A stretch of 64,000 nucleotides of DNA from Dictyostelium discoideum. Lineage: Eukaryota. The translations under genes and the position numbers were made by a program. The stretch lies in assembly GCA_000004695.1 (NCBI GenBank), contig CM000150.2, positions 2,688,001 to 2,752,000 on the forward strand, in the 5' to 3' direction. Below the pieces are notes generated by a model. The model was not told the origin of the DNA. It did not search any database and saw only the letters and a program-made list of their open reading frames with translations. Below, piece by piece: positions 53,124 through 56,337 of the stretch. The first letter of the stretch is position 1. Every line of letters begins with the position of its first letter.

Positions 53124-54151
53124 ATGTCAATATCATATAAAGATTTTAGGTATCCAGAATGTTGGAAAAGAAATCCAAATTCAAAAAATCAATATTTTGC
53201 AGAAATTTTTAAAGATTCAATTAAAGTTGGTATATATGAATTAAAAAATCAAAAACATTATTCATATATGGAGGATATTGTTGGAATTTGTAGATATTTT
53301 TATCCAACTATTGATAATGAACAATTGACATTATGTGGTACTTTTATGAATTGGTTATTCTTAATTGATGACTTTTTAGAATATTACAAGTGAAAAACAA
53401 AATGAAATTCTTAAAAGTCATGAACATATTTTATTCACTGATCAATTTTTAAATAGTGATGTTGAACCACCTACACTATGTGAAAAGTTAACAATCCTTT
53501 TACAAAATAGTTTAAAACAATGGGCTATTAAATATAAGAAATTGGAAACTTATAATATAACAATAACAACATTAATCCAATGGATGTATTCGGTGTACCC
53601 ATTAAATAAAATCTCTGATTTGACAGATCCAATTCATATGGATTTATATACATTTATTCGTAAAGTTAATTGTGGGGTTCCATCATCGATCGCTGTTGTT
53701 CTTTTAGTTGATAAAGAAATAAATGAAATTGATATTTCAAAAATTTTGTTAGATCCATTTTCACGTATTTTAGAAAATACTTCAATACACATTGGAATAA
53801 CTAATGACTGTGCCTCATATAATAGAGTTTAAAGTTGGTATTCATAAAAGCAATCCATTATACTTTTTACAAATTAATGAAAATTTATCATATGATGATA
53901 TATTAAAATCAATAATAAATAAATGCAATCAAAGAGTAAATCAAAAAGTTAATGATGAAGAATTGTTATTAAAACAATTAAAAGAACAAGGATATACTGA
54001 AAATCAATTAAATCAAGTAAATTTAATTTTAAACTATATTCATTATATTATTCAAGGTAATATAGGCTATTCAATATGTTCCAAAAGATATAATTCTATA
54101 GATCAAGAAGATAAAACCTTATTTGAAAAAAACAGATCATGTTATATATAA
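53124..54151 (+). pseudogene. Terpene synthase pseudogene. It is a paralog of 55300..56337 with at least two frame disruptions.
   Basis: Three consecutive ORFs (53124..53393, 53542..53832, 53804..54151) together tile the whole length of the downstream paralog. The first break follows the DDFLE(DDxxD/E) motif and corresponds to an 11-nt deletion relative to the paralog. The second break follows NDCASY. The spacing is too short for introns. Confidence 0.7.
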
Positions 54152-54979
54152 TATTTTTTTAATTTGCTAAAATAAACTTTAAAACAATTAATATACTTTT
54201 TTTTTTTTTTTTTTTTTTTTATTGTTTATAATGTTTTTATTATTATTTATGTATTAGCAAACATTGAACATAATCCTTTTCAATTGGGTAATAACCACTT
54301 TGACCAAAGGCATCCTATAATCATACATGTCAATGGCACAGTGAATGTAACTTTCCAGCTTTCTTCAAACAGAGTTTCCCTTTCAGAATAGATTCCCTCC
54401 CATTTTATTATTGTTCATTTAGTTTATTTTATAAAATAATAAATATTAAATAAATATTAAATATTATTGAAAAAAAGAAAATATTAAATAAAATGGGGTT
54501 GTTGGTGGTGGGTTCGGTTGAAATTGAATAAAAAAAAATAAAAAAAAATTTCTAAAACACACTTTTTTTTATAATTTAATTTTTGTATTAAATTAAAATA
54601 TAAATAAAAAGTTTAATTTTAATTCTCAATGAAAAAAAAGATTCATTTTTTTTTTTTTGTATTTCAATATAAATTCAATATGAAAAAATATAGGATGAAT
54701 TAATAAATTTTAAAATTATAAAAAAGAATAAAAAAAAAAATTAATGAGTTATATTTATTTAAAAAACTAATTTAAAATTAATAATTACCACTAATTTAAA
54801 TTAGTATTAGAAAAATTGGCAAAAAAGATCTAAATTCTAATAAATAATTAGCCCCAAAAAAAATTAAATTTTTTAAAAAAATATTAAAAGATACATTTCC
54901 CTAAATAGTTATTATCCTATTAGGATTACCAAATTTAAAAGAATGTTTTACTTGAGTATTTTTTTTTTTTTTTTTTTTT

Positions 54980-55067
54980 AAAAAAAAGAACCAATTCTGG
55001 TTGCACCAATCTTTTTATTTTTTAAAAAAAAAAAAGAACAAATTCTGGATGCACCAATCTTTTTATT
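54980..55067. repeat. Tandem direct repeat, 2 x 44 bp with 2-3 mismatches, about 230 bp upstream of the intact terpene synthase gene
   Basis: aaaaaaaagaaccaattctggttgcaccaatctttttatttttt and aaaaaaaaaaaagaacaaattctggatgcaccaatctttttatt. Confidence 0.75.
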
Positions 55068-55299
55068 ATAATACTTAAAATATTTATAGTTTAAAAAAGG
55101 GGGTGTTATTTTCATTTAAAAATGATAAAAAAACAATATATTTTTTATTTATAAAAATAATTAATTGATTTTTGGTTTTATAATTTGAAATTATATTTAA
55201 AATAAAATTAAAAACCAACTTTATATCCAATTTTTGAAAACAATAAATACAAGAAAAAAAAAAAATTTTAATTAGTTTTAAAATAAATAATTAAAAAAA

Positions 55300-56337
55300 A
55301 TGAATATTTTATTAAAAGATTTTAAATACCCAGAGTCATGGAATAAAAGCCCAAATCAAAGCAATCAATATATTGATCAAGTTTTTGAAGATACAAATAA
55401 AATTGGAATTTATGAATTAAATAATCAAGATCATTATTTATACGTAGAAAATTTATTAAATGTTACTTCTTATTTGTATCCAACCTTTGATAAAGAGCAA
55501 TTAAGATTATGTGCTACCTATTTGCATTGGTTATTTTTAATTGATGATTTTTTAGAAGACGAATACAATACAATGTCTGAAAAACAAAATGACGTTATAA
55601 AAAGTCATGCACAAATATTATTAACTGGCCAATATTTGAATAGTGATGTTGATGTGAAACCATCAGAAAAATTAACAATGTTTTTACAAAATACTTCCAA
55701 AGATTGGGCAATTAAATATAATAAATTTGATGTTCATAATATTTATATGACAACTTTATTTCAATGGTTATATTCAGTTTATCCATTAAATAAAACCACA
55801 GAATCAACCAAACCAATTCATATGGATTTATATACATTTATTCGTAAAGTTAATATTGGTGTTGCAGGTTCAATCATTGTTGGTCTTTTAGCGGATAAGG
55901 ATATTACTGATATTGATATTTCAAAAATTTGGTTAAATCCAATATTCACACGTATAATGGAAAATTCAACTATCCAAATTGGCCTTGTAAATGATTGTGC
56001 ATCCTATGACAAAGAATATGCCAATGGTGGTCACATCACTAATCCATTATACTTTTTGCAAGTTAGAGATAATTTAACATTTAATGAAACACTTAATTTT
56101 ATTGTTAATAAATGTAATCAAAGTATAGATGAAATAATTAAAGATGAGCAATTATTATTAAAACAATTAAAAGATCAAGGATATACTGAAAATCAATTAA
56201 ATCAAGTAAATATAATTTTAAATTATAATCATAATTTAATTCAAGGTAATATTAATTGGTCATTAATTTCAAAAAGATATAATAATCATGATGGTAAACC
56301 TTTTATTTTTGAAAATACAAAATCAAAATACATTTAA
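55300..56337 (+). CDS. Terpene synthase, microbial type (345 aa, single exon)
   Basis: The Asp-rich motif is [10 protein letters not shown]. The NSE/DTE triad is [10 protein letters not shown]. The overall helical-TPS length fits the family known in dictyostelids. Confidence 0.8.

Follow-up and report, generated by a model that had tools for sequence, protein, structure and literature searches.

The terpene synthase (TPS) genes of Dictyostelium discoideum, DdTPS1 to DdTPS9, reportedly received their founding definition in a 2016 PNAS paper. The nine genes are full length, expressed and active (PMC6524965, PMC6156593). DdTPS1 is a sesquiterpene synthase with prespore-enriched expression, and its product is present in the volatile bouquet (PMC6524965, PMC6156593). 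In the dictyostelid TPS family, lineage-specific duplications have already been described (PMC6156593). In this study, we analyzed a tandem TPS locus in a 64-kb window of chromosome 1 of D. discoideum AX4, where DdTPS1 is preceded by a second TPS-like copy, DDB_G0270514. By the window we mean the whole stretch of DNA analyzed, and all coordinates are positions in it unless a locus handle is given. Our comparisons indicate that this second copy belongs to a tandem array under birth-and-death evolution, that it is a genuine unprocessed pseudogene and that it is probably a chimera of two older upstream copies, called A and B. To this explanation as a whole, including the crossover and the annotation artifact described below, we assign a probability of about 0.87.

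The intact downstream gene was identified directly. Its translation is an exact match to Terpene synthase 1 of D. discoideum AX4 in an exact-sequence look-up, and DdTPS1 is a functional class I (microbial-type) sesquiterpene synthase. It scored 49.5 bits against the Pfam family PF19086 (Terpene_syn_C_2), for which the cut-off is 23.7 bits. With 7ofl, a solved fungal terpene synthase, as the motif reference, the DDxxD/E motif was located at amino acid 82 (DDFLEDE, 55543..55563, aligned to DDWLDD) and the NSE/DTE motif at amino acid 231 (NDCASYDKE, 55990..56016, aligned to NDIFSYNKE). A first-pass annotation of this DNA had described the tandem arrangement and the retention of both motifs in the downstream copy correctly, with exact coordinates for both copies. 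It had also stated that the paralogs could not be assigned from the sequence alone. They can: the downstream gene is DdTPS1 and the upstream one is DDB_G0270514 (Q55E24). About 240-335 nt before the DdTPS1 start codon, a 48-nt tandem duplication (54964..55059, 85% identical) contains GAACCAATTCTGGTTGCACCAATC and may be a duplicated promoter element.

The upstream copy can be aligned to DdTPS1 end to end, from the start codon through the stop codon, with a similarity well above chance (tblastn E ~1e-110). They share 770 of 1019 nucleotides (75.6%) and, once the AX4 copy is frame-repaired as it was for all amino-acid identities given here, 204 of 338 amino acids (60.4%). The latter value is at the top of the 55-60% range given in the first-pass annotation. 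Besides these two, no further TPS-like segments were found within the 64-kb window. The upstream copy can be read only in three consecutive frames (53124..53393, 53392..53832 and 53837..54151). As had been noted earlier, 11 nt are lost directly behind the DDFLE codons of the DDxxD/E motif. A second disruption, which had been placed after the NSE/DTE motif, also exists, although its position is different: a 2-nt deletion after 53823 truncates an Arg codon inside the motif, and the terminal Glu is out of frame. Split before its Glu codon, the pseudogene sequence does not qualify as an NSE/DTE motif. Two further indels, both in frame, had been overlooked (+3 nt at 53466..53468 and -3 nt after 53756). 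Only the middle frame segment matched PF19086, and its 20.7 bits were under the cut-off. Judging from these lesions, it should be impossible for a full-length enzyme to be produced from the upstream copy.

Table 1. Features of the tandem TPS locus in the AX4 window, and TPS content of the syntenic loci in relatives
Feature	Position	Strand	Remarks
Upstream flank	52566..53123	+	Orthologous to the copy-A flank L005:7422-8000 and to the A-remnant flanks L002:2044-2509 and L003:1892-2415
Probable TPS pseudogene (DDB_G0270514 / XP_645957.1 / Q55E24)	53124..54151	+	Full-length homology to TPS1
Segment apparently derived from copy A	53124..53477	+	19/20 diagnostic sites A-type; 94-98% identical to L005/L004 A, 79-90% to B copies
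'Intron 1' of the AX4 model	53354..53417	+	64 nt, GT..AG, 79.7% AT; excises the DDxxD/E motif and the 11-nt lesion
DDFLE codons (DDxxD/E motif)	53367..53381	+	Frame 0, readable; frame breaks directly behind
11-nt deletion (frameshift 1)	53379..53380	+	AAGATGAAGAA in intact orthologues; placement ambiguous by 1-2 nt
First premature stop (TGA)	53391..53393	+	In the original frame
Private 3-nt insertion	53466..53468	+	Adds a Pro codon; in frame
Putative crossover interval	53478..53546	+	Zero A/B-diagnostic sites; A-to-B switch inside
Segment apparently derived from copy B	53547..54151	+	29/32 diagnostic sites B-type, 3/32 private
Private 3-nt deletion	53756..53757	+	Removes one codon; in frame
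'Intron 2' of the AX4 model	53765..53834	+	70 nt, GT..AG, 72.9% AT; excises the NSE/DTE motif and the 2-nt lesion
NDCASYN codons	53803..53823	+	First seven residues of the NSE/DTE motif
Second premature stop (TAA)	53830..53832	+	
Pseudogene-TPS1 spacer	54152..55299	+	Ends orthologous to the B-TPS1 spacer of L002/L003/L005
DdTPS1 (DDB_G0269428, XP_645958.1, Q55E23)	55300..56337	+	Intact intron-less 345-aa class I (microbial-type) terpene synthase
L002 and L003, wild D. discoideum			Internally deleted copy-A remnant, intact 346-aa copy B, TPS1
L004, 'D. cf. discoideum'			Intact copy A, frameshifted copy B (near codon 55), TPS1
L005, 'D. cf. discoideum'			Copy A interrupted by a stop at codon 283, intact copy B, TPS1 orthologue frameshifted near codon 184
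L006, D. dimigraforme			One TPS gene
L007, D. citrinum			Single TPS gene; short decayed fragment directly upstream (7246..7555)

The history of the locus was traced by comparison with syntenic loci (L001 to L007) in seven other assemblies. These were built from Nanopore and Illumina reads in a 2025 study whose subject was the tgr genes, not the TPS genes (PMC12745789). That study covered the laboratory strain AX2-214, the wild D. discoideum strains CR116C and OT3A, the possible cryptic species M4B and S6B, D. citrinum and D. dimigraformum (PMC12745789). In our set, L001 (GCA_054883475.1), from an AX4-like laboratory strain, and the wild L002 and L003 are labelled D. discoideum, and the remaining labels are given in Table 1. 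From the table in PMC12745789, from which strain names were deduced, we infer that L001 is AX2-214.

The AX4 array is one copy shorter than that of relatives with the order A-B-TPS1, which is three copies long in L004 and L005. We found 52 sites at which copies A and B are fixed for different bases, the first 20 at 53130..53477 and the last 32 at 53547..54119. The AX4 copy is almost entirely A-type at the former and mainly B-type at the latter (Table 1). In a sliding window, its identity switches from A to B at about 53430..53520. From 53547 to 54151, identity to the intact B copies (L002, L003 and L005_B) is 93-98%, compared with 77-90% to A over most of this part. Neighbor-joining (NJ) trees of the two partitions were incongruent: the AX4 copy grouped with A copies in the 5′ tree and with B copies in the 3′ tree. 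The flanks follow the same division, and the spacer matches include L002:4886-4956, L002:5751-5997 and L005:10997-11087. The remnant in L003 was identified as copy A, since its identity is 93% to the 5′ part of the AX4 copy and 83-85% to B copies. Taken together, sequence identity, trees and flanks mark the AX4 pseudogene as a chimera that combines the 5′ end and flank of copy A with the 3′ end and flank of copy B.

The simplest reading of this mosaic would be that, in the NC4 lineage, one unequal crossover inside 53478..53546 reduced A-B-TPS1 to (A/B)-TPS1. Ancestrally, the tandem array would have comprised three genes (A, B and TPS1). On the branch to the laboratory strains descended from NC4, a non-allelic homologous crossover would then have joined the first third of A, at the 5′ end, to the last two-thirds of B, at the 3′ end. 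The mosaic pattern and the flank orthology suggest that the intervening sequence was deleted in this step. The fused copy also bears the 11-nt and 2-nt frameshifts at its two Mg2+-binding motifs, together with the two in-frame indels. It has also gathered private changes, which are mainly non-synonymous. We considered whether the 11-nt deletion might be the crossover junction, that is, an out-of-register join. This was rejected. The A/B switch, between 53477 and 53547, is about 100 nt 3′ of the deletion, so the deletion is an event separate from the crossover. The copy-A remnants of L002 and L003 end near 53329, before the deletion site, and give no date for the deletion.

Within the spacer, a GC-richer stretch at 54249..54530 (core 54249..54420) occurs only in AX4 and the AX2-like assembly. 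No counterpart was found in the spacers of L002 to L007, nor was the stretch repeated elsewhere in the window. A 44-aa open reading frame (ORF), TIIKWEGIYSERETLFEESWKVTFTVPLTCMIIGCLWSKWLLPN, lies on its minus strand, and no protein homologue of this ORF was found. The AX2 gene model takes the plus strand of this stretch as a spurious last exon.

Signs of relaxed constraint were also observed. The changes private to AX4 are 17 non-synonymous and 6 synonymous, compared with totals of 16 and 25 for two intact B copies, those of L005 and L002, and a Fisher exact test showed that the difference is significant (p = 0.0096). Among those of AX4 are W>L and G>D, at positions where all other copies are conserved. 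The pairwise dN/dS is 0.08 between the two wild alleles and 0.44 between AX4 and L002.

Several points weigh against the explanation given above. The relaxed-constraint signal depends on small counts, and a cruder count polarized with TPS1 as the outgroup was alike on both lineages (23:11 vs 19:10, non-synonymous to synonymous). In addition, none of the three reading segments of the upstream copy contains an extra stop codon. Because of these similar ratios and the lack of extra stops, the decay is not likely to be old, and the inactivation looks real and not ancient. AX4 and AX2 share one ancestor isolate (NC4), so L001 excludes sequencing error but does not speak to the spread of the dead allele. 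Finally, gene conversion followed by the loss of one copy could yield the same mosaic as a single crossover.

The status of the upstream locus in the reference annotation has to be weighed against its reading as a chimeric pseudogene. The entry DDB_G0270514 (XP_645957.1, Q55E24) is annotated as coding for a 'hypothetical protein' of 297 aa that has no Pfam domain. A brute-force intron search showed that removing the two 'introns' of Table 1 from the window sequence yields XP_645957.1 / Q55E24 exactly. The locus might thus be a real spliced gene of three exons, encoding a non-catalytic TPS-like protein without either metal-binding motif. The boundaries are canonical, the 64-nt and 70-nt segments jointly restore one frame from the start to the original stop, and the three exonic segments have no additional stops. 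However, in every intact copy the homologue of each 'intron' is coding sequence, matching codon by codon, and the catalytic motifs are among the codons excised. Each of the intact orthologues and paralogues is a single ORF of 343-346 aa that is coding across the 'intron' regions, and every intact TPS of the array is intron-less. A second annotation pipeline bridged the same lesions in the AX2 model KAM9941360.1 (353 aa) with other introns, of 28, 61 and 117 nt. The AT content of the 'introns' (73-80%) is near that of coding sequence (76.5%) and below that of the spacer (83.8%). Neither the AX4 nor the AX2 protein model matched PF19086, compared with 43-50 bits for intact copies. The private substitutions, which point to relaxed constraint, also speak against a maintained product. 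Because the two models disagree, excise homologous coding sequence with its motifs and lose the Pfam match, real introns were deemed unlikely, and we regard a functional spliced gene as very improbable. The coding status of DDB_G0270514 instead appears to be a gene-prediction artifact, with 'introns' apparently placed to skip the frameshifts. In the literature searched, neither DDB_G0270514 nor any TPS pseudogene was mentioned, and dictyBase or the founding 2016 paper may already flag the pseudogene.

The first-pass annotation implied that the upstream copy is simply TPS1 duplicated in recent times and since decayed, with no chimeric history. Its tandem position, its orientation, which is the same as that of TPS1, and the full-length alignment are all consistent with this idea. 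However, the 75.6% nucleotide identity to TPS1 has to be set against 92% (86% in amino acids) to the intact upstream orthologues of other strains. Moreover, the upstream clade and the TPS1 clade are separate in all discoideum-clade genomes sampled (NJ tree), and the nearest relatives differ between the 5′ and 3′ parts, with flanks that match A and B, respectively. A simple duplicate is contradicted by these results and very improbable, and a chimera of two older upstream copies is preferred.

It had been suggested that read evidence might restore a continuous ORF in the upstream copy. Over 13 kb, the identity between L001 and the window is 99.69%, and 2 mismatches and 8 gap openings set them apart. 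These differences show that L001 was assembled independently rather than copied from the reference. Its upstream copy is identical to that of the window at 1028 of 1028 positions, all four indels included. As the independent assembly is identical, the lesions are real and the ORF is not restored. Errors of sequencing or assembly in the reference, with a truly intact gene in AX4, would be another way to account for the frameshifts. This idea is the least probable of all and is effectively refuted: indel errors are common in a very AT-rich, homopolymer-filled genome (the GC content of the region is only 13-28%), but L001 was made with a different technology and agrees throughout, and an 11-nt deletion in the non-homopolymer AAGATGAAGAA is unlike a typical sequencing error.

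In all relatives examined, the flanks of the TPS array are kept, with a Q/T-rich protein upstream and a long coiled-coil protein, then mago nashi, downstream. The TPS content between these conserved flanks differs among the seven syntenic loci (Table 1). On the time-scale of this species complex, members are therefore both added to and lost from the array, which is birth-and-death evolution, as the first-pass annotation had proposed. In each of the wild relatives with an upstream copy, at least one of copies A and B is intact, and the intact upstream orthologues scored 42.9-49.5 bits against PF19086. Intact B genes lie at L003:3816-4856 and L002:3843-4883, and an intact A gene at L004:8001-9041. 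Between AX4 and L002/L003, TPS1 has diverged by about 5% and the upstream copy by about 8%.

Different members of the array appear to be disabled in different lineages. The lesions in the wild assemblies are taken from Nanopore-based assemblies, in which residual read error is possible. Putative lesions were found in L005:8001-9041 (copy A, in-frame stop at codon 283) and L004:10692-11719 (copy B, frameshift at about codon 55). The copy-A remnants of wild D. discoideum (L002:2492-2893 and L003:2418-2852) have lost about codons 67-251 and are annotated as proteins of 122-150 aa. At L005:11848-12881, the gene caller joined copy B to the frameshifted TPS1 orthologue, giving a 638-aa product. If this frameshift is real, TPS1 is dispensable in that lineage; alternatively, it is a residual long-read error. 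The D. citrinum fragment (L007:7246-7555) is multi-frame and equally similar (about 75-80%) to the TPS1 and the upstream clades, pointing to a lost duplicate that is older or of independent origin.

Among the neighboring genes, 56495..59080 (minus strand) encodes an 861-aa protein composed mostly of AAKKAEEERLAAE-type coiled-coil repeats. Its orthologous models are 807-1003 aa long, and the repeat number appears to vary between assemblies. On the other side, 50717..52498 (plus strand) encodes a low-complexity protein with poly-Q and Thr/Pro-rich tracts. Its aligned identity to wild D. discoideum, about 90-94%, fits the 5-10% divergence over the whole locus. No tRNA genes, which are possible retroelement targets, were found at 50000..60000.

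Based on these results, Q55E24 / XP_645957.1 (DDB_G0270514) should be relabelled as a TPS pseudogene, and the exon-intron structure of KAM9941360.1 is likewise an artifact. The AX4-based count of nine genes also seems to under-represent the species, as an intact tenth gene is present in wild isolates, with up to two extra genes in the sister lineages. It is an even question whether wild D. discoideum and its cryptic sisters carry one or two extra functional TPS, A and B, which share about 60% identity with DdTPS1 and were lost in the laboratory strains. If so, the volatile terpene repertoire would be larger and more strain-variable than the nine DdTPS of AX4 imply, and strain-specific terpenes from a fast-turnover array could add to ecological or between-strain signaling differences. 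The useful outcomes are the correction of the annotation, one or two apparently functional extra TPS in wild relatives and a resolved case of array turnover.

Compared with known systems, the downstream gene is DdTPS1 itself, with its DDxxE and NDxxSxxxE motifs and PF19086 domain. The upstream copy differs from DdTPS1-9 in belonging to a separate lineage outside the nine, with about 60% amino-acid identity to TPS1. Its closest counterparts are the intact upstream TPS of relatives, namely KAM...ACTFIR_004780 (P0004, 346 aa) with the L002 allele, ACTFIZ_000181 (P0005) and L005 copy B. They share synteny, flanks and Pfam family with the AX4 copy; in contrast, they are uninterrupted, keep both motifs and are purely A- or B-type, whereas the AX4 copy is a mosaic with four indels. 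Comparable tandem systems are the plant TPS clusters, the DdTPS6/DdTPS2 duplication and the DpTPS4/5 pair. The locus resembles them in being made of duplicates of specialized metabolism, with one to three copies in close relatives, independent decay and a fusion copy. It shows no mechanistic difference from known tandem-array turnover, and within the literature searched it is newly described. The case is a new instance of well-known processes and leaves the knowledge of how terpene synthases work unchanged. For a eukaryotic microbe, it provides a compact and fully resolved example of duplication, crossover fusion, internal deletion and frameshift decay in one species complex.

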